A DNA stretch of 64,000 nt from Candidatus Poribacteria bacterium (lineage in GTDB: Bacteria; Poribacteria; WGA-4E; WGA-3G): assembly GCA_022827625.1 (NCBI GenBank), contig JAJEIE010000024.1, positions 40,227 through 104,226 of the forward strand. The letters are read 5' to 3'. The translations under genes and the position numbers were made by a program. The notes under the pieces were generated by a model. That model saw only the letters and a program-made list of their open reading frames with translations, was not told where the DNA came from and made no database searches. Of the stretch, positions 2,438-16,097 are shown one piece after another; position 1 is the stretch's first letter; every line of letters starts with the position of its first letter.

Positions 2438-3703
2438 TTAATTTTCAGTCCGGAGTGCGTCGGTAGGTGAAAGCCGCGCCGCCCGCATTGCAGGATAGAC
2501 GCCAAAACCTACGCCCATGACAATCGAAAAAATAACAGAAGTGAGTATCCACGGTAAGGATAACACGACGGGCCACACATCCACAACTGGCACGATCCGC
2601 ACCGCAAGCCGTGCCATCCCGTGCGCCGCCACCCAACCGCCTGCGATGCCGAGTAGCCCGCCGCAGAGACAGAGACAAATGGATTCCGTCAAGAACTGAT
2701 AAAAAATATCAATTCGTTTCGCACCGACCGATTTCCGCACACCTATCTCCCGTGTCTTTTCACCGACAGAGACGAGGCAGATATTCATGATGCCGACACC
2801 GCTGACGAACAACGAGAAACCTGCAATACTGCCCAAAGTGATTTTTATTACTTTTTGAATGTGGAAAAGTCGTCGAGCCGTCAATTTCGCTATCCAAACC
2901 CCGATAAACTCATCTTTCCCTCGGTGTCTTTTACGCAGCGTGTTTTTAACAGAATCAATAATACTGTTAATCTCTGCCCCTTTTCTAAAAAAGACGAGCA
3001 AGTAATCGACATAACGAAAGCCTTTCACCCGTTGTTGATAGGTGGTCAATGGTACAGAAATAGCGTCATCTAAAGAATACGTGTCACTGAGGCTCATGCC
3101 TTTTGTTGTCATCACTCCGATAACCCGTAACCTGATCTGCGCTTGCCGCCAATGATACCGAAGTTTCACCTCTCGTCCGATGGGCGATGCCTCCCCAAAA
3201 AGCTCCCTGGCAGTGTTAGCACCCAGGACACAGACCTGCTTTGCATTTTCGATATCGCTGTCGGAGAGGAATCTACCAACGTGAACTTCCCAACCCATGC
3301 CGGGGGCGTAGTCTGCTGTGATACCTTCTAAACGCGCTTTCGCTTGATTCCCGTTTCGGCTGCTAACAAAGGTGTTGAAGTCTTCTACTTTAGGCAAGAC
3401 ATACAGCACATCGGGGCATTCTGCCTCAACTGCGGAAGCGTCCTCAAGGGTATATCGTTCTGTCGTGCGCCGGACGAGCCGCGGTCCCTTCCAAATAGAA
3501 GTCCGTGTCCAGAATGCGATTTGGTTGGCACCGCCCATCATTTCAAGGTTTTGAGCGATGATGCGTTTCCCACCATCGCCGATAGCGATCATGCAAAGCA
3601 CACCCGCAATTCCGATGAAGATGCCGAGAATGGACAATCCTGCACGAAGCCTATTTTGCGCAAGGGGCTTCACACCCGCAGCTATAGCATCACGAAGTTT
3701 CAT
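2438..3703 (-). CDS. ABC transporter permease, MacB/FtsX-like (MacB periplasmic core domain + FtsX 4-TM domain)
   Basis: N-terminal TM helix, a large periplasmic domain, then three C-terminal TM helices ending ...GVYPAMRAARLSPTDALRTEN, the canonical FtsX-family C-terminus. No ATPase gene is adjacent. Confidence 0.8.
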   Translation of the reverse strand: MKLRDAIAAGVKPLAQNRLRAGLSILGIFIGIAGVLCMIAIGDGGKRIIAQNLEMMGGANQIAFWTRTSIWKGPRLVRRTTERYTLEDASAVEAECPDVLYVLPKVEDFNTFVSSRNGNQAKARLEGITADYAPGMGWEVHVGRFLSDSDIENAKQVCVLGANTARELFGEASPIGREVKLRYHWRQAQIRLRVIGVMTTKGMSLSDTYSLDDAISVPLTTYQQRVKGFRYVDYLLVFFRKGAEINSIIDSVKNTLRKRHRGKDEFIGVWIAKLTARRLFHIQKVIKITLGSIAGFSLFVSGVGIMNICLVSVGEKTREIGVRKSVGAKRIDIFYQFLTESICLCLCGGLLGIAGGWVAAHGMARLAVRIVPVVDVWPVVLSLPWILTSVIFSIVMGVGFGVYPAMRAARLSPTDALRTEN

Positions 3704-3802: not shown

Positions 3803-5551
3803 CTACCTCTGTCCCAGCACTTTCAGAAATTCTGGATCCTTTTGGACATCCGAAAACTCAGGAGTCTCAACGAAAGTCGGGTAGTATGTATCCTGATAAT
3901 TATAAGGCTCTACCATATAATCGTTCTGAGCAACCTTCAAGTGCTGTAAAGTTTTTTCTCGATCCTTCTCAGAAGCCCAGATGCTCACGGCAAGCATGAA
4001 GTGGCCATAAGGGTTGTTATTTCCCAAATCGACGGCGATTTGTAGCATCCGCGTTGCTTCGCTATACTTTTTCGACCATACCAGACAACAACCGACATCG
4101 TGAGCAGCCCAAATAAGGTTGTAGGTATTGACCGGATAACGGGCATGCTGTTTTTCTACTTCCCCTTCGATAAACGTCCTTGTATCTGTCCAGACTTGAT
4201 CGAAACGATCCCAATCTTCCTGTTTTCTATACAACAGAAGCCGATTGGTTCTTACAGCTAACCAGAATCTAAAATAATTCCGCCAACCGGGTTCACCGTT
4301 GGCACGTTCCAATTTTTCTATTTCGAGAAGTGCCACATCTAACCGGTCATTGCTTCGTAATATTTCCGCTCCCATTTGTAGAAAATCGCAACGACTGTAC
4401 TGACTCACTTTAGGGTTCTCCAAGCGTTCAGATGCCTCATTATAGAGTTGAATCCAGTCATCAATACGACCTTCCGCTGCCCAACATCCAGCGCTGGTTA
4501 GATTGGAAATGATCCTTAACACATATTTTTCTGACTGCTTGCATGCCCAACGGTAAAGACGGGTCTGCTCCGCAATAGCTTCTCGATTTCTCTCAAGAAA
4601 AGCGAGACTATTGACTAACGTGTTATGCGCCCAGAAACGCTCCGTATTATCTGAGGTCTCATCTATATACCTACGGAGTAGAGATATCCGTTTTTCCATG
4701 CCGAGTTTGCCCATATACGGGTATATCTCATCAACGGCAAGATGTGCCAATTCGGGTGTGGTTTTACCCTTAAGGGCAGCTTCAATCTCGTTGCAGGCTT
4801 CTGTAAGAATATCCGATCGTGATGCAGGATCAGATTTCACATTCTCCATGAATGCAGTGAACCTGCTACGAATTTCTTCTAATTGATTCATGATGTTCTC
4901 CTTGAGAGTATCTGATAGTTCTAAATGACCAAAGAATTCTTGATTCAAGAATTCTGAATCTGTTTGCAGACGCTTTCGCGCCCGTTGGAGTCGGCTCGTA
5001 ATTGTATTCACCGACACTCCCATGAATTGGCTGATCTCTTTCGTTGACATTTCGTCAAGATAGTAGCGTGTTACAACTGCGCGTTCATTCTCTGGCAATT
5101 TTTCCAAAAGTCTTTTCACAAGTTCATGGTAACGCTCCGTCCTCTCTGTCATCCGCTGTTCCGATATATGATGTGTATAAGAGGATTCCTCGATTTCTTT
5201 AACGGGTGTGTCCTCCAGTGATTGCATCACAGACTTTTGGCTTCGCATCCAATCAATACAAAGCCGATCTGCGATGACATGGAGCCATCCGGCAAATTGA
5301 GTGGGATTCTTGAGGGTCGGAAGTTTTTTGTATGCCCTAAGGAAGGTGTCTTGCATAATATCTTCCGCATGGTGAAAATCTTGGGTCTTCCGCCATGCCA
5401 GGGCATGAATGCTCTTTTGGTACTTTTCGACTAAGATACCAAACGCAGCGTCATCACCCGATAAGATTTTGCGGATTAGTTGAACATCGTCTTCTCTTTT
5501 CACGAAACTTTCTCCTAATGAACAGATTCGATTATGTTTGCCCTCATTCAA
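3803..5551 (-). CDS. ECF-type sigma-70 factor with a ~380-aa C-terminal TPR/helical-repeat extension
   Basis: N-terminal sigma70 region 2 (FGILVEKYQKSIHALAWRKTQDFHHAEDIMQDTFLRAYKKL) and region 4 (LPENERAVVTRYYLDEMSTKEISQFMGVSVNTITSRLQRARKRL), followed by long helical repeats. Confidence 0.75.
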   Translation of the reverse strand: MNEGKHNRICSLGESFVKREDDVQLIRKILSGDDAAFGILVEKYQKSIHALAWRKTQDFHHAEDIMQDTFLRAYKKLPTLKNPTQFAGWLHVIADRLCIDWMRSQKSVMQSLEDTPVKEIEESSYTHHISEQRMTERTERYHELVKRLLEKLPENERAVVTRYYLDEMSTKEISQFMGVSVNTITSRLQRARKRLQTDSEFLNQEFFGHLELSDTLKENIMNQLEEIRSRFTAFMENVKSDPASRSDILTEACNEIEAALKGKTTPELAHLAVDEIYPYMGKLGMEKRISLLRRYIDETSDNTERFWAHNTLVNSLAFLERNREAIAEQTRLYRWACKQSEKYVLRIISNLTSAGCWAAEGRIDDWIQLYNEASERLENPKVSQYSRCDFLQMGAEILRSNDRLDVALLEIEKLERANGEPGWRNYFRFWLAVRTNRLLLYRKQEDWDRFDQVWTDTRTFIEGEVEKQHARYPVNTYNLIWAAHDVGCCLVWSKKYSEATRMLQIAVDLGNNNPYGHFMLAVSIWASEKDREKTLQHLKVAQNDYMVEPYNYQDTYYPTFVETPEFSDVQKDPEFLKVLGQR

Positions 5552-5758
5552 AAGGCTTAATCAAATTCCTTAAATTAAGCAATACAATACGATTCGGACC
5601 TTCTATTATTAAAGACGAAAGTTTGAGCAGAAAACGTGCATTATGGAAAAAAACCAAAAAACTGAATGTTTTAGAATTTGTTTTGTGAGTATTAGGGAAT
5701 AAAAAAGGGAACCGGTAAAAAACCAGTTCCCTGTGGACATTCTACTGGACTTCGGAAG

Positions 5759-6100
5759 CTAAACTGACAATCCAGCAACAGCAGCGTCTTCACTGTCGAA
5801 ATGTTCAAATAGATTCACCACACGACTCAGAACAATGAGATTTCTGATATGTTTTCCGACATTGATGACCCCTACGCGTCCGTGTTTCCGTGATGCAGCA
5901 GCGTATGCTTCCATCAAGGTCCCAAGACCTGAACTATCAATCCGATTGACCTGCTCGAAATTGATGAGGATACGTGGCGTATCAGAAGCCTCTATTTGTG
6001 GCAAGATGACTTTTCGTAAGTCTGATGCGGAACGTCCGCCTACCTTTCCAGTGGGTTTTAAAATCGAGATGCCATTTTGCTGGCGAATTTGCGTTGTCAT
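5759..6100 (-). CDS. STAS-domain anti-sigma-factor antagonist (SpoIIAA/RsbV-like)
   Basis: 113 aa with ILINFEQVNRIDSSGLGTLMEAY, the STAS fold with its conserved phosphorylatable Ser region; AGGAG Shine-Dalgarno upstream. Confidence 0.8.
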   Translation of the reverse strand: MTTQIRQQNGISILKPTGKVGGRSASDLRKVILPQIEASDTPRILINFEQVNRIDSSGLGTLMEAYAAASRKHGRVGVINVGKHIRNLIVLSRVVNLFEHFDSEDAAVAGLSV

Positions 6101-6216
6101 TTTTTTCTCCTTTTTTGTTTTTGGAATTTGTAACTGTTAATTGTTTTTTAATATTGTTCAAACGTTCACTTTAAGGATGCATTGACTTGACCCGAATTCT
6201 ATAAAAAACCGCCTTT

Positions 6217-6411
6217 TTAACGCAAATCCAAGTCCGCGTCCGTTTTGAGGAGTCTGTGGAATGTTTCAAAAGACGCTCCCCAAAGTTTCTCCTCTGTATA
6301 AGGATCGCCCGGTTCAGCTGGCACGACAGTCTCATCACAACCGAAAGCAAGGTAACCGATGCCGAAGAGTAACAAACAGACGAGGAATAGATTAATCATT
6401 AGGAAACGCAT
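6217..6411 (-). CDS. Small lipoprotein (about 64 aa) of unknown function
   Basis: The internal Met MRFLMINLFLVCLLLFGIGYLAFGC has a signal peptide plus lipobox-like FGC and an AAGGAG SD 7 nt upstream; the longer 100-aa ORF upstream lacks an SD. Confidence 0.4.
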   Translation of the reverse strand: MRFLMINLFLVCLLLFGIGYLAFGCDETVVPAEPGDPYTEEKLWGASFETFHRLLKTDADLDLR

Positions 6412-6686
6412 TTTTTTCTCCTTATTAGAATAGGACTTGCATTTGAATTTGCAAGTGACAATTTTGCTGAAATTTTTCTTTTTGATCCGTTGATTTAAGT
6501 GACGCATCTTAGATGTCAAAAGGTTGCATTATTTTCAAAACGGGTGTTGAAACCAAATGATCTCAATTTGCAAGAACGGAGAGATAGGAGATGTATTCTC
6601 CAGACCCCTCAGCCTTTTCATTTTTCCTCCTTTTGCCTATATAGAGTTCGTTCAGGAAAAAAAGATAGTAAAGAATTGTCAGTTGT

Positions 6687-6725
6687 CGTTACTACAAACG
6701 AGTTCCAAAACAGTTGCATTTTTTT
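6687..6725 (-). promoter_or_regulatory. ECF-type promoter-like motif (minus-strand GGAAC-N13-CGAC) shared with the sigma24 locus
   Basis: A ~38-nt block, cgttactacaaacgagttccaaaacagttgcattttt, is about 85% identical to 16656..16692. On the minus strand it reads as an AAC...CGT ECF-like -35/-10 pair. Confidence 0.4.
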
Positions 6726-6830
6726 CATTTAAGTTGAACTGGCGTTTTATAAAAATTGATAGCGAAACCCAACTTTGGATACTTTTTGGATTGTTGGGTT
6801 TCGCTCTGTCTATCCGCAGTGCTGTTCGTG

Positions 6831-8042
6831 TTAATTTCGCGCCGTGCTGGCGTAAAATTCCGAGATACTTTCAACGCCGCGCAGCAGCATTTCATCACTC
6901 AAGTGAAACGCCTCGCGTATTTTCAGTTTTTGCTTATCTTCTATTGAAGCAAGCAACCGTTGATTTGGTACAACATGGACGGAGTCAGCCTTTTCTCGAA
7001 GTTCCTGCAGTCCCTGCTCTGCTTTTTCGGCACGGCGTTGCCCTTCAAAATTGAACGGACACGTCACAACGCCTACCGCTAAAGCCCCTTGCTCTTGAGC
7101 AAGAGAGGCAATCAGGGGTGCAGCGCCTCCGCCCGTTCCGCCACCCATACCGGCTACAACGAAAACGATGTCGGCATCGGCAACGACGTTATGGAGTTTC
7201 TCTCGATCCTCCTCGGCAGCCCTTTTGCCCATCTCTGGATCCGCTCCGGAATACCCCGGAGTGGTGTTAGCACCAATCAGCACGGGTGTTGCGTCATTGT
7301 GTTTGTCAAGTGCTTGCTGGTCTATATTCACTGCGTAAAATTCAATATCTGTCAAACCAGATTCAATCATCCATTTGACGGCGTTACCGCCCGCACTACC
7401 GACACCCACAACCTTGATTTTGGGGTGGAGACGCTTGGATTCTTCACGTTTAGATGACATAGTTCTCCCTCTTTCAGGTTCGACACCGAACGCCTTGCGT
7501 AGGAGTTCACGTGTCTGTCTTAACCGTGTTTTAACTGTACCTATCGCTAATCCGAGTTCAGCGTGGATCTCTTTGATACTCCACGATTCCAGATAGTATA
7601 GCACCGCGACACGTCGCACTTTATCTGGCAGGTGATGCACTGCTTCTTTTGCGTCTTCGAGGCGTTCGATTTCTCGAAAATATCCCACCGCGTCCTGATC
7701 AATGCGATGGGTTAGATCGGCATAACTGGACGGAATTTCGCCGCTTGCGTGGCGTGTGGGCGTATAGTACCGCTTACAAGCGTTGTCCGCAATGCGGTGC
7801 AACCAGCCACTAAAACTTTCGACGCGTCGGAGTTGGCTGATGTTTTCCCAGACGGCTCTCCAGATGTCCATAAGGATTTCTTCAGCGTCGCGGCGTTGTC
7901 TCGAATTTGCGATAACGACTTTCCAGATGCGAGGACTATAACGCGACATCAGTTCTGTAAATGCCAACTCATCACTTGCTTGGGCAAGCCGAATGAGTTC
8001 TTCATCTGTCAGATTAGTGTGCGTTAATAGATCGTATCGCAT
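6831..8042 (-). CDS. ECF sigma-70 factor fused to a C-terminal FtsZ N-terminal GTPase domain (tubulin/FtsZ GTP-binding domain only, no T7-loop domain)
   Basis: Residues 1-190 carry sigma70_r2 (FTELMSRYSPRIWKVV...WLHRIADNACKRY) and r4 (LPDKVRRVAVLYYLESWSIKEIHAELGLAIGTVKTRLRQTR). Residues ~207-403 read KIKVVGVGSAGGNAVKWMIESGLTDIEFYAVN...VVAGMGGGTGGGAAPLIASLA...VPNQRL, with the tubulin signature GGGTGGG. By eye this is ~2/3 identical to the GTPase domain of the resident ftsZ (46202..47506). It ends just before the T7 loop. Confidence 0.85.
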   Translation of the reverse strand: MRYDLLTHTNLTDEELIRLAQASDELAFTELMSRYSPRIWKVVIANSRQRRDAEEILMDIWRAVWENISQLRRVESFSGWLHRIADNACKRYYTPTRHASGEIPSSYADLTHRIDQDAVGYFREIERLEDAKEAVHHLPDKVRRVAVLYYLESWSIKEIHAELGLAIGTVKTRLRQTRELLRKAFGVEPERGRTMSSKREESKRLHPKIKVVGVGSAGGNAVKWMIESGLTDIEFYAVNIDQQALDKHNDATPVLIGANTTPGYSGADPEMGKRAAEEDREKLHNVVADADIVFVVAGMGGGTGGGAAPLIASLAQEQGALAVGVVTCPFNFEGQRRAEKAEQGLQELREKADSVHVVPNQRLLASIEDKQKLKIREAFHLSDEMLLRGVESISEFYASTARN

Positions 8043-8233
8043 AGTAAAGTTCCCAATTGGGTTTTAACCTAAAGAGGCAGATTTTTCGCGGGGCGGTTTA
8101 AAAAAATTGAGAAGTCACATTTTTTCGATAGAGCAGGACTTCTCAAAAACCTCCTGTGCCAGGAGGAAGTGGCTTTGGCTTAGGGGGCATTAACTAACTA
8201 TTACGTGAATGATGTCTCCGGGTTGGATTTTTC

Positions 8234-8458
8234 TTAACATTGTTGTGGGTGTGAGTCGATGGCTTGGGTCAAGGCGAACTCTAAAAGGGCGATTGCTTGT
8301 TCCCGAGAGACAGAAGGGAATCCTTCAAGAAAATAGTCAAGACTCTCTCCAGCTTTTAGGTGATCAATGAGTGCCTTTACGGGAACACGAGTACCAGTAA
8401 ACACCGGTGTTCCTCCATGAATCTCAGGATCCTGATTTATCACTTGTTCTGGTTTCAT
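8234..8458 (-). CDS. DUF433-family small protein (antitoxin-like), without the usual PIN/DUF5615 partner
   Basis: 74 aa with GTPVFTGTRVPVKALIDHLKAGESLDYFLEGFP, characteristic of DUF433. Confidence 0.55.
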   Translation of the reverse strand: MKPEQVINQDPEIHGGTPVFTGTRVPVKALIDHLKAGESLDYFLEGFPSVSREQAIALLEFALTQAIDSHPQQC

Positions 8459-8639: not shown

Positions 8640-9548
8640 TTAGTCAACATCTCCTGCCTCTAAGTATTTTAGCGGGCTTTCGATGATGTAGTCCCCCGAC
8701 TCCTCAAGAAACTGCTGCACCAGATAGACATGCCCGACACCGATAATCAGAAGGATTCGATCATCGGTAGACTCAGTGATGCGCGTCAGATTTACAAAGA
8801 TTTTGAGATTCCGTGCGTACCAAACATGGGCGAGCCAATCTGCCCCCGGATATTGGTCGCCAAGTCCAATACGGGCATCATGTATGTATGCTCGCTGGCT
8901 CGCGCGGGTCCTTACAGGGTGATTGAAGCGTATATACTTGTCAATTATCGATTCATATTTCTCAATTTTTCCTGAATCTGTCGGATCTCCGAAACGGTGA
9001 TCCTCAGGGGATCCGAAAAGGTGCTCCTGATTGTGAACTTTTGCAAACTCGCTTCGGTTTATCAAGTGATCCTTAATTTTTTCAAGGATCGGGTTTCGCT
9101 CTGGCCAATAATCTACACAATATATTGTTGAATGTCCAAACGCTTTTGCCAACCTATAGCCGATCTGATCCCCCTCGTACCGCTCAAGTTCGTATGTCCC
9201 ATTCAAATAACCTTGATACCTTTTGTTTTCAGAGGCGCAACGGCTTGGATCCAATTCAACCGCTATTTTGGTAGGTTTAAACGCTTTAAGGTGTTCAAAC
9301 ACTTGTTTAATCTCGCGCTGGCGTTTGGGCACAAGGACATCATCCGCAAAGTGCCAACTACCAAGAATCATAATTGTCGGTTTTTTCATCATTTGCTTAC
9401 TTTCTCCTGTAGATACGTCTGTCTGATTCTCGCTTGTGGCTGTGCCGGCAATAGATAGCACGGCGGCGAGTAAGGTTATGAAATAGAGTTTGCATTTCAC
9501 TAAGATTCTCATAAAATTTTCTCCTATCTGTAGATTAAACCCTTCCAA
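8640..9548 (-). CDS. Secreted TraB/GumN/Tiki-superfamily protein (DUF5694-like), paralog 3 of 3
   Basis: Signal peptide; N-terminal GxxH (IMILGSWHF), conserved Glu (ITESTDDRILL) and C-terminal GxxH (IIGVGHVYLV), as in the Tiki/TraB/GumN superfamily; tandem with two paralogs. Confidence 0.5.
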   Translation of the reverse strand: MEGFNLQIGENFMRILVKCKLYFITLLAAVLSIAGTATSENQTDVSTGESKQMMKKPTIMILGSWHFADDVLVPKRQREIKQVFEHLKAFKPTKIAVELDPSRCASENKRYQGYLNGTYELERYEGDQIGYRLAKAFGHSTIYCVDYWPERNPILEKIKDHLINRSEFAKVHNQEHLFGSPEDHRFGDPTDSGKIEKYESIIDKYIRFNHPVRTRASQRAYIHDARIGLGDQYPGADWLAHVWYARNLKIFVNLTRITESTDDRILLIIGVGHVYLVQQFLEESGDYIIESPLKYLEAGDVD

Positions 9549-9689
9549 AAAGGATCATCAAATTTCAGCAACTCTGGTGGAGGGTAAAAACAAATGACCA
9601 CTTCCGCTGTAGGCACGGTTTCCCAACCGCGCCGATCGCACTGTTCCATTAATTCCAAACTTCACCTTAAAATAATGGGTTTAAAGTGT

Positions 9690-10658
9690 CTACTTCTCCG
9701 CCGCGTCCAAGTATTTCAGCGGACTTTCAACGATGTAGTCCCCGGACTCCTCAAGAAACTGCTGCACCAGATAGACATGCCCAGCACCAATAATCAGCAG
9801 GATCCGTTCGTCGGCAGATTCGGTGATGCGGGTGAGATTGACGTAAATCTTTAGATTCCGATCGTACCAAGAGTGAGCGACCCAATTAGCACCTGGATAT
9901 TGGTCGCCGTTCCCTATACGCGCGATCCACCGTATATATCGTTGATGGGACACACTTCTACCTTCAGGCTCGTTGTGGCGTATGTACATGTCAATGATCG
10001 GTTCGTATTTCTCAGGCTCAATCCAGGTTACGCCACTTTCATCTTGTATAACTTTTCCATCAGTTGTAGGCGGAGGTGGAAGAAGATGTTCCTGATTATG
10101 TGTCTTCGCGAACTTTTGATAGTCTATTAAATCCCAATCAAAACCATCTGGAAAAAAAGGGTGATTGTCTGGCCATGGCCAATAATCAACGCCATACACC
10201 TTTGGATGTTCCATCTGTTTTGCTAATCGAAATCCAATCTGGTTACCTTCCCCGCGTTTGAGTTCGTACGTTCCTTTGAGATAGGCTTGATAGTTTGCAT
10301 TGATCTCGGCATCAAATCTTTCATCTGCCTCAAGGGCTATCTTGGTAGGTTGAAATGCCTTAAGCTGTGTGACGAGTTGCTCAATTTCCTGTTGGCGTTT
10401 AGGGGCGAGGACATCATCCATTTTGTAGTTGAAGGCATCCATTCCCGGATTTGATAAGTGTCCGCTGCCAAGAATCATGACTGTCGGTTTTTGTACCATT
10501 TGCGGAGTTTCTCCTGTAGAGGAATTTGTCTGACCATCGCTTACAGCTATACCTACCGTAAATAACATACCAGCAAGTAGTACCGCTGTATAGGTTTTGC
10601 AATTTGCTAAGACTTTCATAAAACGTTCTCCTATCTCTAAGGCGGTTGATAGCCCCAA
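9690..10658 (-). CDS. Secreted TraB/GumN/Tiki-superfamily protein (DUF5694-like), paralog 2 of 3
   Basis: VMILGSGHL...ITESADERILLIIGAGHVYLV; about 60% identical to its neighbours. Confidence 0.5.
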   Translation of the reverse strand: MGLSTALEIGERFMKVLANCKTYTAVLLAGMLFTVGIAVSDGQTNSSTGETPQMVQKPTVMILGSGHLSNPGMDAFNYKMDDVLAPKRQQEIEQLVTQLKAFQPTKIALEADERFDAEINANYQAYLKGTYELKRGEGNQIGFRLAKQMEHPKVYGVDYWPWPDNHPFFPDGFDWDLIDYQKFAKTHNQEHLLPPPPTTDGKVIQDESGVTWIEPEKYEPIIDMYIRHNEPEGRSVSHQRYIRWIARIGNGDQYPGANWVAHSWYDRNLKIYVNLTRITESADERILLIIGAGHVYLVQQFLEESGDYIVESPLKYLDAAEK

Positions 10659-10696
10659 AAAGGGGTTACCAAATTTCCAACAATTAGGAAAGCACG

Positions 10697-11491
10697 TTAT
10701 CGAGTTCCTGTTTTGCCTGAATCCAAGTATTGCAACGGGCTTTCTATATTATAGACCTCGGAGTCTTCCACAATCTGTTTAAGGAATCCTAAGTGCCCAG
10801 CACCGATGATTAGCAAAATACGCTCATCTTCTGATTCCGTAATTCGGGTGAGATTGACAAAAGTTTTGAGGTTCCGATTATACCAAAAATGTGCGACCCA
10901 ATTCGCCCCCGGGTACTCGTCTTGAAGACCAATTCGGGCAATCCGTAAGTAGTCGCGGAGGTTTGTGCGGATCTCTTCATCTTGGTTCTCCCGTATATAC
11001 ATGTCAACTATGGGTTCGTATTTTTCAGGCTCAATCCAGATTCTGCCATCTTCATCCTGCGTCATTTTTCCAGTAGGTGGCGGTCCCAGAAGATGTTCCT
11101 GATCGTTCGTCTCTGCAAACGCCCCGTAATCTGTCCAATGATCCTCCCGATCCTCCCGAACGATTGGATCATCGCGCAAATAATCTACACAGTGGACCTT
11201 TGGATGTCCCATCTGTTTCGCTAATCGGAATCCAATCTGGTGGATTTCATGGGGTTTAAGTTGGAAGTTGTCCTTCAGATAGGCATCATATTCGTTCTGA
11301 AGTTCAGCCTCCCAATGTGTATCAACTTCGACGGCTATCTTCGTCGGTTTGAAACGGGCAAGTTGTTCAACGAGCTGCTGAAGTTCGGCTTGGCGTTTGG
11401 GTGCAAGGACATCGTCCATTCTATAATTGATTCGATCTGCTCCCCAATTTGCCAAATGTCCACTACCCAGAATCATAAGTGTCGGTTTCAT
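10697..11491 (-). CDS. TraB/GumN/Tiki-superfamily protein (DUF5694-like), paralog 1 of 3
   Basis: LMILGSGHLANW...ITESEDERILLIIGAGHLGFL. The called start sits at the GxxH motif, so this copy may lack a signal peptide or have an upstream alternative start. Confidence 0.45.
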   Translation of the reverse strand: MKPTLMILGSGHLANWGADRINYRMDDVLAPKRQAELQQLVEQLARFKPTKIAVEVDTHWEAELQNEYDAYLKDNFQLKPHEIHQIGFRLAKQMGHPKVHCVDYLRDDPIVREDREDHWTDYGAFAETNDQEHLLGPPPTGKMTQDEDGRIWIEPEKYEPIVDMYIRENQDEEIRTNLRDYLRIARIGLQDEYPGANWVAHFWYNRNLKTFVNLTRITESEDERILLIIGAGHLGFLKQIVEDSEVYNIESPLQYLDSGKTGTR

Positions 11492-12154: not shown

Positions 12155-14725
12155 TTAAAACATGCGAGACCACTTAAAATCGACTTGATACCCGCGTCCC
12201 TCTTCGAGTGCTTTCGCAAGGTTCACTCTGAAGGGACCCCCTTGGAAGCCTATACCGAGATTAACCTTGGGTTGTATCTGCTCTATGTCTTCCAAGCGAT
12301 ACCACACTTGTCCTACATCTACGAAGGGGATAAGGAATGCCCCGTCTCCTAAACTGTGAGCATACTCCAAGTTGAAGAGGAAGCCGTGGTTGCCCGCAAA
12401 TTCATAAAGCGAGTAGCCGCGGAGTGTTCCGATACCACCGATAACGAATTGACGTTGATAGGGCAGCTGCCCCGTTGCAGTCCCGACCTTTAAACGGGCA
12501 TCAACTCTATCGTCTCCGATGGGATAGTAGTGGCGGAAATGTGCCTGGAAGCGCGTAAAATCAAAATCGGAACCGATTGCAGGACTGGTGTGCTCTACAA
12601 GAAACGTGTTATACCATTCGACTGCATTTTCGCGGTTCTTAAAGTTTTCTCGGTTCTCAAAGTCGTATTTTACGTCAGTCCATCCGCGATTGTCAAAGTC
12701 GTATTTTAAGGAGATACTCCGCATACTGCCAGGGTGTATCGGCGAATTTTGCCGTCCCGCTAATTCGGGGTGTGCTGACCAATTTCTGAGATGGAAGTCC
12801 ATCGTCCGCTGCAGACTGTTGTGTTCTTCCCAAAGTACGAACGCTCCCAACGAATGCTTGATATTTGGAGATTGCCATTGAAGTGCTGTCACCCCACCCT
12901 CTCTGAGATAGTAGTCTTGGAAATCAGTGCCCCACAATGCCCGAACAAACTGCTCACTATCACTAAGCAAGAGGTCTCTGTCCCTGACGGAGGTTAACCG
13001 ATGGATTTGCGCGCTGTATATCAGGTGTGAATCTCCACCTATTGTTACACCGCCACCCGCTCGGTAATTCGTGCTTCGGCTTGAGAGCCCGTAACTTATT
13101 GTGCCGAACCAAAAGGGATCCACTGACCTATCCCTTTGTGTCCGGGAACCGGCTTCGTGAATATCAATTGAGGCAGTCGTTTCGTACCCGTTTGGCCGAA
13201 TCGTTGAACCCGATCCCGTAAAAAAGAGTGGATCGGAATGCCACCGTTTGCCGATTTCAAGTCCACCACCAATCCGCAGCCCATCAACCGATGTGAGGCT
13301 GCTGGCACTCACAGGACGGAAGAGGTCCTCACTTGATGAATTCACTACTTTAGGACGGATTGGAGTTGGTGTCAGAGAGACATTGTTGGTGCTTCCTAAA
13401 ACAGGTTCTGTTGGTTCACTGGGTTCAATAGGTTCGCTGGGTTCAGCGAGTTCTGTTGGTTCACTGGGTTCAACAGGTTCTAAGGTGTCCAACGAACCTT
13501 GCGGATCTGACAGTTTTGGCGGCAATACATGTAACCAGTGTCCGTCATTTTTATAAGTGTCATCAACACCTATATTTGACCACCAAGAACGGATACCCGT
13601 CCGGACCTGACCGCGGTCAAAGTTAATCCCCATCCGAATCGGTTCGGTTGTGTCTGGGTAATCCAACATTTCCCACGGAATTTCCATTTCCACAACCCAG
13701 CCAGTCGCATTGACGTTAGCGGCGACGTTCCACTGATCCATCCATTCGGTTTTGTTTGCCTCCTGTTTGGGAGAGCGGACGAATTTTTTGCCAATCGGGT
13801 TTGCCATGAAGAAGGTGCGATTAGAAAATCTGTGTGTGTGGAAAGGATCGATGCTGAAGGAGACCCAATCCTCTGTCATGTCAAACCTGACATGATCTTG
13901 AATTTGCCGGGCAATGATCTTATCCGGTTCGCTATCATAGAGATGCCATGCGACGTAGATGGCTTCGTTTGTGTAAATCAGTTTAACAACTGTATCATCC
14001 TCGACCGGATTTTCACTACGCGCATTTGTGAAGTTATTCGCTTCGGGGGCAATTTTCCAACACGCATCGTTAAGGGTTCCATCAATAATTGGAACATTTT
14101 CGACTTTTACAGCGAGTAACTCTCTCTGGACCGTGTCCGCAATCGATTTCGACTGCGCCTTCAGCGCATCACCGACATTGATATCCATCGCACCAAAGTT
14201 GCTCAGATTGCTAAGCAAGTCCTCGATCCGTTCTGGTGCGATTTCTCCGACGATGTTGACAAAGGTAGCTTCTCCAGATGTTTCAGGGATCACGATGATG
14301 AAAATCCCATACACCATATCTTCATCAAAAAGTAGACTAATTTCTACAACTTCACTCTCTTCCTTGATTTTGACCAGAACCTCCCAATTATCTTCCTTGA
14401 GCCTCCGCTGAAAGTAGCCGACCAATTCCTGTTCGTCGATGGTGAGTCTATCATAGGTACGAACATAAATGCCGTCCAGCATCCGAATTAACTCGGCAAT
14501 TTCCGGTGTGTTGCTCACCGATTTCGTAACCAAGTTGATAAGTTTTGCCGTTAGATTAACCTCAACTTTTGCTTCAAGCGAGGCTGGAAAATCAAAGATG
14601 ATAAGTCCTTTTCTTTCAGTTTCGTCCGCTCTGTCCTGTTGTGCAACTGCCGACTGCATCGGTATTAGCGATAAAACTAAAAACGATAGTATAAACAGCA
14701 GGACACAGTGCTTTTGCAGTTTCAT
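12155..14725 (-). CDS. Large secreted multidomain envelope protein: DUF4252-like N-domain, CBM9/DOMON-like domain, EPxEP linker repeats, C-terminal outer-membrane beta-barrel
   Basis: Signal peptide; the N-terminal ~170 aa resemble 14722..15417 (FVNIVGEI... versus FVNIYGEI...); NDACWKIAPE...AWHLYD block; EPVEPSEPTELAEPSEPIEPSEPTEPV repeats; alternating beta-strand pattern ending ...DFKWSRMF (terminal Phe). Confidence 0.6.
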   Translation of the reverse strand: MKLQKHCVLLFILSFLVLSLIPMQSAVAQQDRADETERKGLIIFDFPASLEAKVEVNLTAKLINLVTKSVSNTPEIAELIRMLDGIYVRTYDRLTIDEQELVGYFQRRLKEDNWEVLVKIKEESEVVEISLLFDEDMVYGIFIIVIPETSGEATFVNIVGEIAPERIEDLLSNLSNFGAMDINVGDALKAQSKSIADTVQRELLAVKVENVPIIDGTLNDACWKIAPEANNFTNARSENPVEDDTVVKLIYTNEAIYVAWHLYDSEPDKIIARQIQDHVRFDMTEDWVSFSIDPFHTHRFSNRTFFMANPIGKKFVRSPKQEANKTEWMDQWNVAANVNATGWVVEMEIPWEMLDYPDTTEPIRMGINFDRGQVRTGIRSWWSNIGVDDTYKNDGHWLHVLPPKLSDPQGSLDTLEPVEPSEPTELAEPSEPIEPSEPTEPVLGSTNNVSLTPTPIRPKVVNSSSEDLFRPVSASSLTSVDGLRIGGGLEIGKRWHSDPLFFTGSGSTIRPNGYETTASIDIHEAGSRTQRDRSVDPFWFGTISYGLSSRSTNYRAGGGVTIGGDSHLIYSAQIHRLTSVRDRDLLLSDSEQFVRALWGTDFQDYYLREGGVTALQWQSPNIKHSLGAFVLWEEHNSLQRTMDFHLRNWSAHPELAGRQNSPIHPGSMRSISLKYDFDNRGWTDVKYDFENRENFKNRENAVEWYNTFLVEHTSPAIGSDFDFTRFQAHFRHYYPIGDDRVDARLKVGTATGQLPYQRQFVIGGIGTLRGYSLYEFAGNHGFLFNLEYAHSLGDGAFLIPFVDVGQVWYRLEDIEQIQPKVNLGIGFQGGPFRVNLAKALEEGRGYQVDFKWSRMF

Positions 14726-15417
14726 TTGTTCTCCTCCTTGTTTGAGTGATCGTTTGTTTCAGTTTCTGATTTCGGTGCTTCGTCAGGTTTTTCCGAGTTG
14801 ACCTCCGCGGGCCACCATTGGGAATTAGAAGGGTTTACTAAATCACGAAGCGTCTTGGACATCCCCTCTTCCGAACTGGATGCCATAAGGCGTCCAAATA
14901 GAGCACCAAGCTTCTGGAAGTCGATTTCCCCATAGATATTCACAAAACTCCAGCCTTCATTGTCGATAATCGTGGCGAAAATACCGTGCAGTATCCCCGG
15001 TTCTTCCGCATAGAGCAGACTGAGATTGAATTTGTCCTTAATTTTGACGATATGTTCCCACTTTTCGTCTGCAAGTATACCTTGGTAATGGTCTATGATC
15101 TGGTTGAGATCTTCCGTCTCTTTATCGTAGGCTCGGACAGCCGCGCCTTTTAGCATGTTGGCATACGCCGTATAGGCTGTCATGTCTGTGGGTGGATCTC
15201 CATCAGATTTTGGAATGCTCGCCATACCGAAATTGATAAGCAGATTGAAGAATGTTTTATCCAAGTTAATTACCATTTTGGGAGCAGATGTATCTGGCAG
15301 GTCCATCGCTACTTTACCGCGGATGGTCTCTGTTTTTTCTGTGCCGTTGGTCAGAGCATCCGCGTTTGTCAAGACACAGCTGACTATTAAAAGTGCTGTA
15401 AGGGCGAATTTTCTCAT
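14722..15417 (-). CDS. Secreted DUF4252-like protein
   Basis: Signal peptide; shares a domain with the N-terminus of 12155..14725; overlaps its neighbours by 4 nt (ATGA), consistent with translational coupling in a sigma/anti-sigma operon. Confidence 0.55.
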   Translation of the reverse strand: MRKFALTALLIVSCVLTNADALTNGTEKTETIRGKVAMDLPDTSAPKMVINLDKTFFNLLINFGMASIPKSDGDPPTDMTAYTAYANMLKGAAVRAYDKETEDLNQIIDHYQGILADEKWEHIVKIKDKFNLSLLYAEEPGILHGIFATIIDNEGWSFVNIYGEIDFQKLGALFGRLMASSSEEGMSKTLRDLVNPSNSQWWPAEVNSEKPDEAPKSETETNDHSNKEENK

Positions 15418-16097
15418 TGGGTTTTTCCTTTTTGTTCTGAGTTTTGGGTACCTTCTGTATTCGGAGCATTTTCGGATTCCCGGTTAAGACTATCCAAACT
15501 CCGGTGAATTGCTGATGAAATGTTCATTTTCTTTTTTAATGCCCTGCGCGAAGCTTGTTCAATCTGAACAAACGGACGCTGTGAAGCTTTATTAATCTGG
15601 GCATTTGGCAGTTTCTCGTTGACGACAACGTTGGTTCTCTCCACGGCGTAGTTCAACTTGCTGAGGGCATAATTCAAGTCCTGAGCAGCTTGCATGATTT
15701 TTTGATGCTGTTGATACTGGTAAATACCAAATGCGACAATTCCAAACAGACATGCCAACGCACCTGCGCGAACAAGTGAGAAAGTTAAATTATCCCAGAA
15801 TGTAGATAATTGAAATAACCGATGCCACCATCTTTCACCCTTATCCGGGTGGGCGCGGACATACGCCGCAACCGCATCGAAGACGGCTGGCGGCGGTTCT
15901 GGTCTTGGAAGCTCGTGTAATGCTTCGCCGATTGTTTGGGCAAAGTGAACTTCATCTTGACACGTTGGGCAGGACGTAACGTGTGCTGCTATTCTCGCGT
16001 GTGTCTCTGCATCCAACTCGTCAGCGAGATATGCCTCTAAGGTGTCCTGAACTTCCAGACAAGCTGAATCTTGAGGGCGTGAAAATTGATGATTCAT
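15414..16097 (-). CDS. Anti-sigma factor, zf-HC2 type with one TM helix
   Basis: HARIAAHVTSCPTCQDE is the HxxxCxxC zinc-finger anti-sigma motif, followed by a TM helix (LACLFGIVAFGIY); 4-nt overlap with the sigma gene. Confidence 0.75.
   Translation of the reverse strand: MNHQFSRPQDSACLEVQDTLEAYLADELDAETHARIAAHVTSCPTCQDEVHFAQTIGEALHELPRPEPPPAVFDAVAAYVRAHPDKGERWWHRLFQLSTFWDNLTFSLVRAGALACLFGIVAFGIYQYQQHQKIMQAAQDLNYALSKLNYAVERTNVVVNEKLPNAQINKASQRPFVQIEQASRRALKKKMNISSAIHRSLDSLNRESENAPNTEGTQNSEQKGKTQ

Follow-up and report, generated by a model that had tools for sequence, protein, structure and literature searches.

ECF sigma factors form one of the major signalling systems of bacteria, and how many of their groups sense a signal in the absence of an anti-sigma factor is an unsettled question. 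Anti-sigmas are typically missing for ECFs that have C-terminal extensions (PMC7826278, PMC8999054), and the ligand-binding extensions of ECF41 and ECF238 have been proposed to act by conformational change (PMC8999054). ECFs often autoregulate, and the subgroups without autoregulation have no conserved motif (PMC7826278). We identified a gene of Candidatus Poribacteria, a sponge-symbiont bacterium, in which an ECF sigma factor is continued in frame by the N-terminal GTPase domain of FtsZ (sigma-FtsZN). The gene lies in a 64-kb stretch of DNA, the whole of which was analyzed and is referred to here as the window.

The fusion resembles the ECF41-, ECF42- and ECF57-like sigmas in that its two-domain ECF core continues into an extension longer than 50 aa (here 209 aa), no cognate anti-sigma adjoins it, and a group-specific conserved promoter is predicted at its own gene. 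It also shares with ECF57 the use of WD40 propellers, which are found on paralogs of its sigma module (PMC8999054, PMC7826278). However, its extension is not a dedicated sensor fold but is paralogous to a housekeeping cytoskeletal GTPase and, in the sister genes, to DnaN or DnaE; a conserved internal start precedes the extension, and the payload is exchangeable at one locus. Additionally, the sigma half has a single conserved Cys (C89), whereas ECF57 is reported to have two that link sigma2 and sigma4, a point against the ECF57 signature. Neither FtsZ nor tubulin is mentioned in the ECF classification and review papers (PMC7826278, PMC8999054). The first-pass annotation had not recognised such an extension from the literature, and we likewise found no description of a sigma-FtsZ fusion in the full-text literature, including papers on ECFs, FtsZ polarity and conflict systems; a sponge metatranscriptome paper likewise contained nothing relevant. 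Within the literature searched, sigma-FtsZN is an ECF with a C-terminal extension of a previously undescribed type.

The proteins SulA, MciZ, MinC and MipZ bind the C-terminal domain or T7 face of FtsZ, and FtsZ mutants altered in the bottom face are reportedly dominant-negative, blocking the growing end. Growth of FtsZ occurs at the end where the C-terminal domain is exposed, and the N-domain with bound GTP is pre-formed for attachment at this end (PMC11157280, PMC9897490). Capping of the growing end, discussed together with MipZ, is an established inhibitory mechanism (PMC9897490). Similar to MciZ, SulA and MipZ, the FtsZ part of the fusion is proposed to occupy the bottom (C-terminal, T7) interface of FtsZ and thereby block subunit addition (PMC9897490, PMC11157280). 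However, it has no sequence relationship to these proteins, and the putative capper is an FtsZ fragment that occurs as a natural gene product attached to a transcription factor, and its binding is predicted only.

Prokaryotic conflict systems (Kaur, Burroughs, Iyer and Aravind, 2020, 2021) also contain related parts, namely MinD/ParA, FtsK and rare FtsZ/tubulin modules (PMC7159879) and ECF-like sigma outputs fused to variable partner domains (PMC8195603). However, those systems are multi-gene (MoxR-vWA, GTPase, TRADD-N, caspase), no core component is found near the fusion, and neither paper describes a sigma-FtsZ fusion. Finally, ClpB, IF2 and CheA each give two in-frame products through an internal start. 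The fusion likewise has an internal SD and start codon in a continuous ORF, with predicted long and short isoforms that share the C-terminal part, but its predicted short form would lack the entire sigma and consist of the FtsZ-derived module only.

The fusion protein and its two halves

The coding features are as follows.

6831..8042, minus strand: sigma-FtsZN fusion ORF (group A), 403 aa; ATG at 8042..8040, TAA at 6833..6831
7764..7952, minus strand: sigma region 2, residues 31-93, with motifs DAEEILMDIW and F..WLHRIA.NACKRYY
7494..7652, minus strand: sigma region 4, residues 131-183, LP..VR.V..LYYLE.WS.KEI...LG...GTVKTRL; Pfam PF08281 and PF04545
6855..7421, minus strand: FtsZ N-terminal GTPase domain and most of helix H7, residues 208-396 (Pfam, BLASTP, PDB, TIGR00065)
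46202..47506, plus strand: resident full-length ftsZ in the dcw cluster, downstream of ftsA; presumed parent lineage and proposed docking partner

The sigma half is a canonical ECF (group 4) sigma-70 factor, consisting of regions 2 and 4 only and scoring above the family thresholds. Among Pfam profiles, Sigma70_r2 (PF04542) matches residues 31-93 with 36.8 bits (cutoff 24) and Sigma70_r4_2 (PF08281) matches residues 131-180 with 37.1 bits (cutoff 25.7), and the protein has no Pfam match for sigma region 1.1 or region 3. The score against TIGR02937 is 65.9 bits (cutoff 42.9), and PDB chains of SigW, SigE and RpoE match residues 9-193. We compared the protein with the ECF motif set DAED..Q..W, F..WL..IA.N and LP...R.V..L....G.S..EIA..LG.S.GTVKSRL (regions 2.1-2.4 and 4.2). 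The fusion carries DAEEILMDIW, FSGWLHRIADNACKRYY and LPDKVRRVAVLYYLESWSIKEIHAELGLAIGTVKTRL, with most positions invariant among 64 homologs.

The FtsZ half matches the Tubulin/FtsZ GTPase profile PF00091 over residues 208-366 (E 1.3e-40, 140 bits, cutoff 33), and its best PDB match is FtsZ 5xdv_A (E 6e-50). In a BLASTP alignment of residues 198-396 with residues 5-202 of the resident FtsZ, 127 of 200 positions are identical (64%, E 8e-63). The motifs GSAGGNAVK (215-223), GGGTGGG (300-306) and PFNFEGQRR (329-337) are all present, and the conserved elements G1 (GxGxAGGN), T4 (GGGTGxG), T5 (PFNFEG), T6 (Asn360) and H7 (Phe379/Asp383) are kept. The resident FtsZ has exactly the same T5 and T6, and T4 reads GGGTGGG in the window protein and GGGTGAG in the group A consensus. 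The nucleotide-pocket residues are near-invariant throughout group A, and the T3 glycine that senses the gamma-phosphate (G266) is found in 98% of members. T2 and the first half of T3, which belong to the longitudinal interface, are relaxed or changed in group A, and 55% of members, the window copy included, have a one-residue deletion in T3. Together these changes could weaken docking onto FtsZ.

The resident FtsZ carries both the Tubulin and the FtsZ_C Pfam domains and scores 387 bits against TIGR00065, above the cutoff. In contrast, the fusion has no match to FtsZ_C (PF12327), and its TIGR00065 score of 231.7 bits, covering profile positions 8-206 of 353, is below the equivalog cutoff of 295.2. 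The alignment with the resident protein ends about five residues short of the T7 loop (GEINVDFADV), and the fusion protein terminates within helix H7, without the T7 loop, the C-terminal domain or the FtsA-binding tail. We found no remnant of the FtsZ C-terminal part past the stop codon in any frame (tblastn, whole window), so the truncation is clean and not a frameshift. The fusion also differs from FtsZ in being fused to a sigma, in evolving several times faster, and in its location 38 kb away from the dcw cluster that holds the true ftsZ.

In AF2 models, sigma region 2 has a pLDDT of 80-90 and the FtsZ half of 80-94. The whole fusion gives a pTM of 0.47 with low pLDDT for sigma4, the linker and the junction, whose peptide is predicted to be disordered. 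From the shallow alignment used (74-97% identity), no confident packing of FtsZN on sigma2, sigma4 or the linker is obtained, and an intramolecular autoinhibition step is therefore unsupported.

These scores and alignments bear out the first-pass annotation, which had read a complete ECF sigma (regions 2 and 4) in the 403-aa ORF, an FtsZ N-domain with the three motifs given above that is about two-thirds identical to the resident FtsZ, and a stop ahead of the T7 loop with no C-terminal domain.

Promoter, terminators and internal start

The putative regulatory features lie on either side of the gene and at the junction of its two halves.

8150..8166, minus strand: terminator-like hairpin CCTCCTGGCACAGGAGG followed by TTTTT (consensus scan, pattern match only)
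8095..8106, minus strand: predicted family promoter, T-tract and -35-like box TTTTTTTAAACC, with an AAC core typical of ECF -35 elements
8070..8077, minus strand: predicted family promoter, -10-like box CCTCTTTA, 17 nt past the -35-like box
8043..8069, minus strand: conserved leader GGTTAAAACCCAATTGGGAAC... with an SD-like GGGA 9-12 nt before the ATG (upstream alignment, PWM consensus)
7458..7472, minus strand: junction with candidate internal ribosome-binding site, AGAGGGAGA (7472..7464), ACT, then ATG (7460..7458, Met195)
6831..7460, minus strand: predicted second product, free FtsZ N-domain, Met195-Asn403, 209 aa (from junction conservation and a sigma-less derivative)
6761..6805, minus strand: terminator-like 13-bp hairpin GCGAAACCCAAC...GUUGGGUUUCGC and U-rich tract, 26 nt past the stop codon

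The conservation of the leader was assessed from 53 upstream regions aligned by eye and from a PWM consensus. A predicted ECF-type promoter, TTTTTTTAAACC-N17-CCTCTTTA, is found upstream of essentially all genes of groups A, B and C, whatever the upstream gene. Strict matches to the two boxes in 1.03 Mb of related loci nearly always precede family genes (81 of 82), and the sole strict match in the 64-kb window is the fusion's own site (0.15 expected). The -10-like box also occurs upstream of a sigma-WD40 paralog (L086), and in a sigma-DnaN paralog (L085) it is displaced by an insertion. No promoter targets beyond family genes were found in the window or in approximately 1 Mb of related loci, and in a metagenome scan one of the 120 matches listed is a true family member, the remainder being chance. 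The promoter might be read by a different sigma. Having a defined predicted promoter, the family could be of use in orthogonal synthetic circuits.

The hairpin downstream of the gene folds with -27.6 kcal/mol (z = -4.2), and none of 200 shuffled sequences is as stable. The hairpin at 8150..8166, which is terminator-like by pattern match only, probably ends the upstream DUF433 gene and would insulate the fusion gene. This arrangement shows the fusion gene to be a monocistronic, stand-alone unit with its own predicted promoter and terminator-like hairpins.

No anti-sigma gene adjoins the fusion in any of the 54 group A loci, and the zf-HC2 anti-sigma genes that occur nearby partner a separate, short ECF sigma. 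The neighbours of group A genes are transporters, secreted proteins and other ECF sigmas, a recurrent set whose order is shuffled. Neither conserved gene order nor division, replication or defence genes were found around the group A loci, and the window contains no canonical relatives of DnaN, DnaE or WD40 proteins.

At the junction between the two halves, synonymous-site variability is 0.13-0.21 compared with a mean of 0.51, the lowest in the gene save at its true 5' end. The encoded residues change here, but the purine core stays. The junctions of groups B and C read AGGAGG, AAGGAG or AAGGGG, followed by ATG, or by GTG where Val replaces Met. In one Poribacteria lineage the sigma part has been lost and the internal start is used; this sigma-less derivative begins at exactly the junction site and is represented in at least 17 contigs. 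The FtsZ part therefore has a function that is independent of the fusion. The conserved internal SD and start codon predict a second product, free FtsZN. Alternatively, the conservation of these junction elements could reflect recombination or gene conversion between paralogs. The family provides a clear example of internal-start conservation, with a second protein predicted from a fusion ORF.

Distribution, ancestry and selection

The first-pass annotation had suggested looking for the same architecture in related genomes, and a sigma-FtsZN protein of approximately 400 aa is found at 54 of 80 Poribacteria loci and in more than 120 protein clusters. Members of group A have a constant length and an end point in helix H7, and closed chromosomes of 5-6 Mb are among the assemblies. 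The fusion is in frame without a stop codon in all 54 loci, and is likewise maintained in groups B and C over long divergence. Given the E-values and the recurrence in these clusters and independent loci, a chance architecture is excluded. In this analysis, the sigma-fusion family was seen only in Candidatus Poribacteria.

Elsewhere in Poribacteria the sigma module is joined to full FtsZ, FtsZ-DnaE, DnaN, the PHP domain of DnaE or WD40. The FtsZ, FtsZ-DnaE and DnaN fusions share one syntenic slot in different genomes. The DnaE payload keeps the PHP and palm catalytic motifs and ends after the HhH, without the OB and tau-binding parts, and most FtsZ payloads of groups B and C retain a T7-like loop. 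The family is thus a natural series of swapped payloads on a constant sigma scaffold, and the sister fusions suggest a general design in which a common sigma module is combined with an interaction module copied from a subunit of a self-assembling cell-cycle machine.

The first-pass annotation had taken the FtsZ half for a recent in-genome duplicate of ftsZ and a recent, lineage-specific domain capture. Neither proposal survives comparison with the relatives. Recent duplication is ruled out by the DNA identity between the FtsZ part and the resident ftsZ (67%), the phylum-wide distribution and the identity within the group, and group A is one branch of a larger paralogous family. On average, the FtsZ domains of group A are 70% identical to each other and 63% identical to resident FtsZs, whereas resident FtsZs are 93% identical to each other; the group A payload evolves approximately 4-5 times faster than resident FtsZ. 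The divergence of the fusion tracks that of the resident FtsZ. In NJ trees, group A is monophyletic with 82-92% bootstrap support, its placement as sister to resident FtsZ receives 20-56%, and a grouping of A, B and C receives 39-42%. Descent from a Poribacteria FtsZ is favored mainly because identity is 63% to resident FtsZ compared with 48% to FtsZ of other phyla.

The dN/dS values are 0.147 for sigma2, 0.154 for sigma4 and 0.152 for FtsZN, and as sequence-based estimates they show both halves to be under equal purifying selection (approximately 0.15), which rules out a pseudogene. There is no sign of diversifying selection at the resolution of this analysis. The concern in the first-pass annotation that the junction might be an assembly chimera is lifted, as dozens of independent assemblies, closed chromosomes included, have the same junction; a frameshift is also ruled out, with no FtsZ remnant past the stop. 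No relatives of the fusion were found on viral contigs, and a phage origin is without support.

Possible functions of the fusion

Our preferred reading, which we advance tentatively as one that may well be right yet falls short of probable, is that the fusion is an autoregulated sigma whose FtsZN module docks on the resident FtsZ, coupling sigma availability to FtsZ assembly. The sigma would switch on its own promoter; we infer autoactivation because it is the usual reason for a group-specific conserved promoter at an ECF gene. The ORF would give two proteins, sigma-FtsZN (45 kDa) and free FtsZN (23 kDa, from Met195). FtsZN would bind GTP and, with its nucleotide ('top') face, dock onto the bottom (T7) face that the resident FtsZ exposes as a monomer or at the growing filament end, and since it has no bottom face of its own the docked module could not be extended. 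Docking would tether or sequester the sigma on FtsZ, such that its availability to RNA polymerase would report the assembly state of FtsZ, and may also damp FtsZ polymerisation. Free FtsZN would compete for the same sites and set the threshold of the switch. Capping or tethering by FtsZN is plausible by analogy, given the retained top face, the missing bottom face and the published polarity of FtsZ, and would also agree with the conserved nucleotide pocket of group A.

The fusion may link gene control to the division machinery. The module that would sense or give the output is recognisably taken from that machinery, and in the sister genes from the replisome. The identity of the payloads therefore suggests testable partners, namely the resident FtsZ, DnaN and DnaE. 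If FtsZN docks on FtsZ, the fusion would be the first example in nature of a physical connection between a transcription factor and the pool of Z-ring subunits, and FtsZN the first genetically encoded FtsZ fragment used to bind filament ends. Through this family, cell-cycle control becomes approachable in an uncultivated phylum of sponge symbionts.

It is unlikely, but deserves some weight, that the payload is instead the output and the sigma its self-amplifying driver, with FtsZN, mainly in its free form from the internal start, capping filaments of the resident FtsZ and arresting division. Sister payloads would poison the clamp or the polymerase, and the module would act as a bistable switch to growth arrest or dormancy, possibly useful to a slow-growing symbiont. 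The conserved internal start, the maintenance of the sigma-less FtsZN gene in at least 17 contigs, and a monocistronic gene whose promoter is seen only at family genes are all consistent with such a brake, as are the truncations of the group A payload (T7 loop and C-terminal domain) and of the DnaE payload (OB and tau-binding parts). There is also precedent in the cell-division-derived effector domains of conflict systems, rarely FtsZ or tubulin (PMC7159879), and in capping as an established route of FtsZ inhibition (PMC9897490). However, a brake does not account for the retention of the in-frame fusion throughout the 54 group A loci as well as groups B and C, and WD40 payloads are not obvious poisons. 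Nor are the other payloads clearly dominant-negative, because the DnaE catalytic motifs and the T7-like loops of most group B and C payloads are retained.

We consider it decidedly unlikely that the fusion is an integrated decoy, or guard, in which a phage or toxin inhibitor binds the payload and the sigma is released or activated to turn on a protective regulon. By analogy with the integrated decoys of plant NLRs, the FtsZ-N, FtsZ, DnaE and DnaN payloads would be copies of essential hubs that inhibitors attack. The phage proteins lambda Kil and T7 Gp0.4 target FtsZ, which would fit such a role. So would the interchangeability of the payloads on one sigma module, all of them copies of essential cell-cycle proteins or WD40, the occurrence of FtsZ, FtsZ-DnaE and DnaN versions in a single syntenic slot, and the faster evolution of the payload (70% compared with 93% mean within-group identity). 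In conflict systems, ECF-like sigma domains provide the output and are combined with partner domains that vary greatly (PMC8195603), and a defence island is reported to be under the control of an ECF sigma (PMC11506125). However, membership in a known anti-phage defence system finds no support in PADLOC-DB 2.0, where the fusion gives only sub-threshold HTH matches (E ~0.008) and the FtsZ, DnaN and DnaE paralogs and the STAS and DUF433 neighbours give nothing meaningful. The transporters, secreted proteins and other ECF sigmas around the fusion include no defence genes, no relative is found on viral contigs, and selection is purifying, with diversifying selection unseen at this resolution. Group A also lacks the C-terminal domain and T7 face to which the known proteinaceous FtsZ inhibitors bind. 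The broader version of this idea, a Poribacteria family of exchangeable hub decoys or WD40 sensors that would convert attack into transcription with the free payload as a buffer, is by the same analogy slightly more doubtful again.

We give little credence to FtsZN acting as a GTP/GDP (or related) sensor that alters the conformation of the sigma with no involvement of the resident FtsZ. The near-invariant pocket residues alongside relaxed polymerisation-switch loops T2 and T3 would suit a nucleotide sensor, and ECF extensions 'activated by conformational change' are known (PMC8999054). However, the AF2 models contain no confident contact of FtsZN with sigma2, sigma4 or the linker, the DnaN and WD40 sister payloads are not nucleotide binders yet share the same sigma module and junction, and both the internal start and the sigma-less derivative argue for a role of FtsZN in trans.

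An artefact or decaying remnant (a chimera, a frameshifted gene pair or a pseudogenised ftsZ copy), which the a priori oddity of the architecture and one related copy that looks broken (L080, 231 aa, two HSPs) might suggest, has a negligible probability and is, on sequence comparison, already refuted by cross-genome conservation: the same junction and length recur in 54 loci from independent assemblies and in over 120 protein clusters, dN/dS is approximately 0.15 in both halves with no FtsZ remnant past the stop, and the gene has its own conserved predicted promoter and terminator-like hairpin.

A sigma factor joined to an FtsZ N-domain

The fusion gene is a single ORF on the minus strand of the window (6831..8042; ATG at 8042, TAA at 6833..6831) encoding a 403-aa protein. 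Pfam places Sigma70_r2 at residues 31–93, Sigma70_r4_2 at residues 131–180 and the Tubulin/FtsZ GTPase domain PF00091 at residues 208–366 (E 1.3e-40). FtsZ_C has no Pfam match in the fusion; the resident FtsZ (46202..47506) contains both PF00091 and PF12327. By BLASTP, residues 198–396 align to residues 5–202 of the resident FtsZ with 127/200 identities (64%), and the alignment stops a few residues short of the resident T7 loop GEINVDFADV. A tblastn search of the whole window with FtsZ found no further FtsZ-like sequence past the fusion stop in any frame. The first-pass annotation had described an ECF sigma and an FtsZ N-domain in one ORF, the latter carrying named FtsZ motifs (all found), about two-thirds identical to the resident FtsZ and ending before the T7 loop. 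This observation is correct in every particular.

The nearest solved structures to the FtsZ half are FtsZ chains (E about 6e-50), and no PDB chain spans both halves of the fusion. Although FtsZ-derived, the domain falls outside FtsZ proper by NCBIfam, scoring below the equivalog cutoff (231.7 vs 295.2) and covering profile positions 8–206 of 353.

We compared the FtsZ halves of 53 fusions of the window type (group A) with 17 resident sequences. Group A retains G1 (GxGxAGGN), T4 (GGGTG[A/G]G) and T5 (PFNFEG), together with Asn360 in T6 and Phe379/Asp383 in H7. The T3 glycine G266, the counterpart of E. coli G71, is kept in 98% of the 53 group A sequences; in published work this residue flips upon gamma-phosphate binding and is part of the filament interface (PMC11157280). 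T2 is relaxed (Thr240 is conserved in just 49%), as is the first half of T3, with a one-residue deletion there in 55% of members.

Distribution, age and exchange of payloads

A search for the same architecture in relatives, as the first-pass annotation had proposed, was productive. Among 5.8 billion proteins, more than 120 clusters share the Pfam architecture (74–97% identical, 399–419 aa), the few named ones being called 'sigma-70 family RNA polymerase sigma factor [Candidatus Poribacteria bacterium]'. Scanning a single genome from each GTDB species gave 80 family loci, every one in Candidatus Poribacteria and many on closed 4–6.7 Mb chromosomes; no family relative was found on viral contigs. 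Group A, which includes the window gene, accounts for 54 loci with proteins of ~395–427 aa and a common end point in helix H7 (...SISEF(H/Y)..). The sigma-FtsZ fusion is thus real and conserved. Pairwise dN/dS (NG86, 250 pairs) is 0.147 for sigma2, 0.154 for the linker and sigma4, and 0.152 for the FtsZ part, so that both halves are under equal constraint. An artefactual origin was considered and rejected, given the same architecture across loci and closed chromosomes and the dN/dS of ~0.15.

The fusion had been described as a recent in-genome duplicate of ftsZ, a claim refuted by the mere 67% DNA identity between the two FtsZ segments, the Poribacteria-wide loci and the divergence within the group. 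N-domain identity averages 70% within group A, 93% within resident FtsZs, 63% between the two, and 48% between group A and FtsZs of other phyla; going by identity, the duplication probably occurred inside the phylum. When fusions are paired with resident FtsZs whose contigs have an identical length, and which are presumed to come from the same contig, fusion and FtsZ identities are 81 vs 91%, 78 vs 89% and 76 vs 78%; on that pairing the fusion diverges in step with FtsZ, only faster. Because of the DNA identity, the loci across the phylum and this divergence alongside FtsZ, the duplication is an old one, going back at least as far as the sampled Poribacteria. Neighbor-joining bootstraps support monophyly of group A (82–92%) and of resident FtsZ (100%), but leave their sister relation unsettled (20% with all groups, 56% without the long-branched groups B and C).

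One locus (L043) carries two group A copies ~4 kb apart (1867..~3140 and 6001..7284), one of 427 aa aligning in two pieces, and another (L080, OZ244616.1) a broken 231-aa copy at 6007..6702. Duplication and decay thus take place now and then inside the family.

An exhaustive search over 50%-identity representatives, followed by Pfam, revealed that the sigma module, at 50–60% identity, also heads other payloads:

P0124, 595 aa: full globular FtsZ
P0122, 1425 aa: FtsZ, then DnaE (PHP to HHH_6)
P0127: DnaE PHP domain
P0128: DnaN clamp (three-domain version in L002)
P0132, P0135, P0137, P0138, P0143, P0145: WD40 propellers
L055–L057, L059, L060, L062–L065, L073, L077, each 6001..~10290 (+): sigma-FtsZ-DnaE triple fusion, 11 Poribacteria genomes
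L085 6001..7410 and L002 1..1418: sigma-DnaN (beta-clamp); slot-mates for comparison, L058 and L066–L083

Group C comprises sigma-FtsZ proteins of 585–602 aa (15 genome loci) and group B sigma-FtsZ-DnaE proteins of 1419–1438 aa (11 genome loci); several genomes carry a group A gene together with a gene of group B or C. The B and C genes lie in a common syntenic slot (SDR, TatD, BPD_transp_2 permease, fusion, then a WD40 gene), which the sigma-DnaN gene P0128 also occupies. With FtsZ, FtsZ-DnaE and DnaN fusions in one slot, the payload is therefore exchanged at this locus and differs from genome to genome. Most B and C FtsZ parts retain a T7-like GEI(N/S)xDFDDI. The triple fusion, which is conserved and ~1430 aa long, joins the ECF sigma to a full globular FtsZ (Tubulin and FtsZ_C, T7-like loop) and to DnaE with PHP, pol III alpha, finger and HHH_6 regions; the PHP (HLHNHSEYS) and palm (PDIDIDF) motifs are intact, and the DnaE part ends after HHH_6, without the OB or tau-binding end.

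Two further arrangements were observed. P0139 (L207 660..2030, a 2-kb contig of GCA_004196255.1) joins an unrelated ECF sigma to an FtsZ N-domain that groups with the non-Poribacteria FtsZ P0144, with unrelated sequence past helix H7; this one case could be either a similar fusion that arose separately or an artefact. Five proteins without a sigma domain (P0125, P0136, P0141, P0142, P0162; 640–840 aa) contain two tandem FtsZ units, with two Tubulin stretches and, in most, two FtsZ_C stretches.

Promoter and predicted internal start

All group A, B and C genes are preceded, ~35–45 nt before the ATG and regardless of the upstream gene, by TTTTTTTAAAC(C/T)-N17-CCTCTTTA, which is also found at the sigma-WD40 gene L086 and, displaced by an insertion, at the sigma-DnaN gene L085. 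The elements around the window gene are:

8166..8150: terminator-like hairpin ahead of the promoter
8106..8070: family promoter upstream of the fusion; sole strict two-box match in 64 kb (0.15 expected)
7460..7458: internal ATG, Met195
6805..6761: 13-bp hairpin and U-tract past the stop codon (z = -4.2)

Strict matches precede family genes in 81/82 cases in 1.03 Mb of related loci, and no other promoter targets were found there or in the window; a metagenome-wide scan for the pattern was swamped by chance matches. The AAC-containing -35 and the group-specific conservation are as would be expected for an autoregulated ECF. ECFs 'often auto-regulate', and subgroups that are not self-regulated have no conserved motif (PMC7826278). 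From its flanking elements, the fusion gene appears to be monocistronic. In four loci the promoter is split from the gene by insertions of ~100–1000 nt (L019 ~5829..6000, L021 ~5414, L026 ~4923, L085 ~5830..6000), some with a stem-forming GC-rich segment; these may be small mobile elements that landed between promoter and ORF.

Synonymous-site variability is lowest in two places, the true 5' end and codons 188–199 (0.13–0.21 vs a gene mean of 0.51). The junction residues vary (ERGRT, IREGI, EGVRI, ERRGT), and a purine-rich GGAG/GAGG/GGGA core is retained 5–9 nt ahead of an ATG with 98% conservation. At the same position, groups B and C have AGGAGG, AAGGAG or AAGGGG, then ATG. Four genes (L075, L081, L083 and the DnaN fusion, L085) have Val in place of this Met, and its codon is GTG, itself an alternative start. 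Because AF2 predicts a disordered junction peptide, the constraint acts on the nucleotides. At least 17 contigs have, in the group A neighbourhood, a stand-alone 212-aa FtsZ N-domain (P0129), and upstream of it is TTT GAG GTC GAA CCA TAA AGG GTA ATT ATG. This stretch holds the final five codons of the sigma, a stop codon and the purine box, followed by the ATG, now serving as the real start. In three such loci (L208, L209, L210, each 5001..5639) the sigma is deleted save these codons, the family promoter is missing and there is a GC-rich palindrome upstream. The conserved junction could alternatively be a recombination joint between paralogs. We favor an internal start, by which the ORF would give two products, sigma-FtsZN and free FtsZN.

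Possible activity and genomic neighborhood

FtsZ filaments grow at the end exposing the C-terminal domain, where the GTP-bound N-domain is pre-formed to bind (PMC11157280), and capping of this exposed interface is an established mode of FtsZ inhibition (PMC9897490). A T7-less N-domain that binds GTP could therefore in principle add to FtsZ and not be extended. The most likely activity of FtsZN, which lacks the T7 loop and C-terminal domain, would be to join FtsZ yet block extension. FtsZ would then tether or titrate the sigma, FtsZ assembly would be damped, and free and tethered FtsZN would be in competition. AF2 of the fusion (pTM 0.47) gave no confident inter-domain geometry. Capping or tethering, as put forward in the first-pass annotation, is still the best candidate mechanism.

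If FtsZN were instead the output, a brake that the sigma merely drives, this would fit the internal start, the derivative without a sigma and a promoter seen only at the family's own genes, but retention of the fusion would be left unexplained. That the payloads are integrated decoys is consistent with their swapping among essential hubs and their faster evolution; however, PADLOC found no defence context and selection is purifying. A pure nucleotide sensor would suit the conserved pocket of the FtsZ half but not the DnaN and WD40 sisters.

By formal criteria the fusion counts as an ECF sigma that carries a C-terminal extension and has no anti-sigma beside it, and it would work like one. Known extensions are SnoaL, TPR, WD40, Cys-rich, DUF1835 and transmembrane (PMC7826278, PMC8999054); the main text of neither paper mentions FtsZ, tubulin or Poribacteria. 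Conflict systems offer precedents, in that some of their effectors are cell-division domains and some of their outputs are ECF-like domains joined to variable partners, but their architectures are unlike that of the fusion (PMC7159879, PMC8195603). We found no published description of a sigma-FtsZ fusion. Its interest is raised by the exchange of FtsZ, DnaN, DnaE and WD40 payloads on one sigma scaffold with a common promoter and a conserved internal start.

The same-strand neighborhood of group A is recurrent yet shuffled, with ABC-2 permeases, a CBM9/DUF5916 secreted protein, DUF5694 paralogs, MacB/FtsX, a long ECF sigma, a STAS protein and a small lipoprotein-like ORF; no anti-sigma gene adjoins group A genes. 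In the window, the neighbors are:

3803..5551 (-): 582-aa ECF sigma with a ~380-aa C-terminal extension, helical-repeat-like in appearance and without Pfam match; a MacB_PCD/FtsX gene (2438..3703) comes next
5759..6100 (-): 113-aa STAS-domain protein of anti-sigma-antagonist type
6217..6519 (-): small lipoprotein-like ORF that probably begins, in reality, with the ATG at 6411; MRFLMINLFLVCLLLFGIGYLAFGC...
8234..8458 (-): 74-aa DUF433 protein directly upstream of the fusion promoter, with no obvious partner gene identified
8640..11491 (-) and 14722..16627 (-): three tandem DUF5694 paralogs (302, 322 and 264 aa)

Homologs of the 582-aa sigma (cluster c2, ~565–597 aa), which is only 30% identical to the sigma part of the fusion, lie near group A genes in 31 loci. 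Several genomes again have the STAS and lipoprotein-like ORFs (clusters c15 and c10) downstream of their group A genes. The DUF5694 trio is downstream of a short ECF sigma (16094..16627), with a zf-HC2 anti-sigma and a DUF4252 gene between them, going by position and length match to L001; L001, like several further loci, has this block ahead of the fusion too. IS605 OrfB/TnpB-like and DDE transposase genes occur near several family loci (L003 1..527, L086 3097..5629, cluster c12) and may be relevant to the shuffled neighborhoods.
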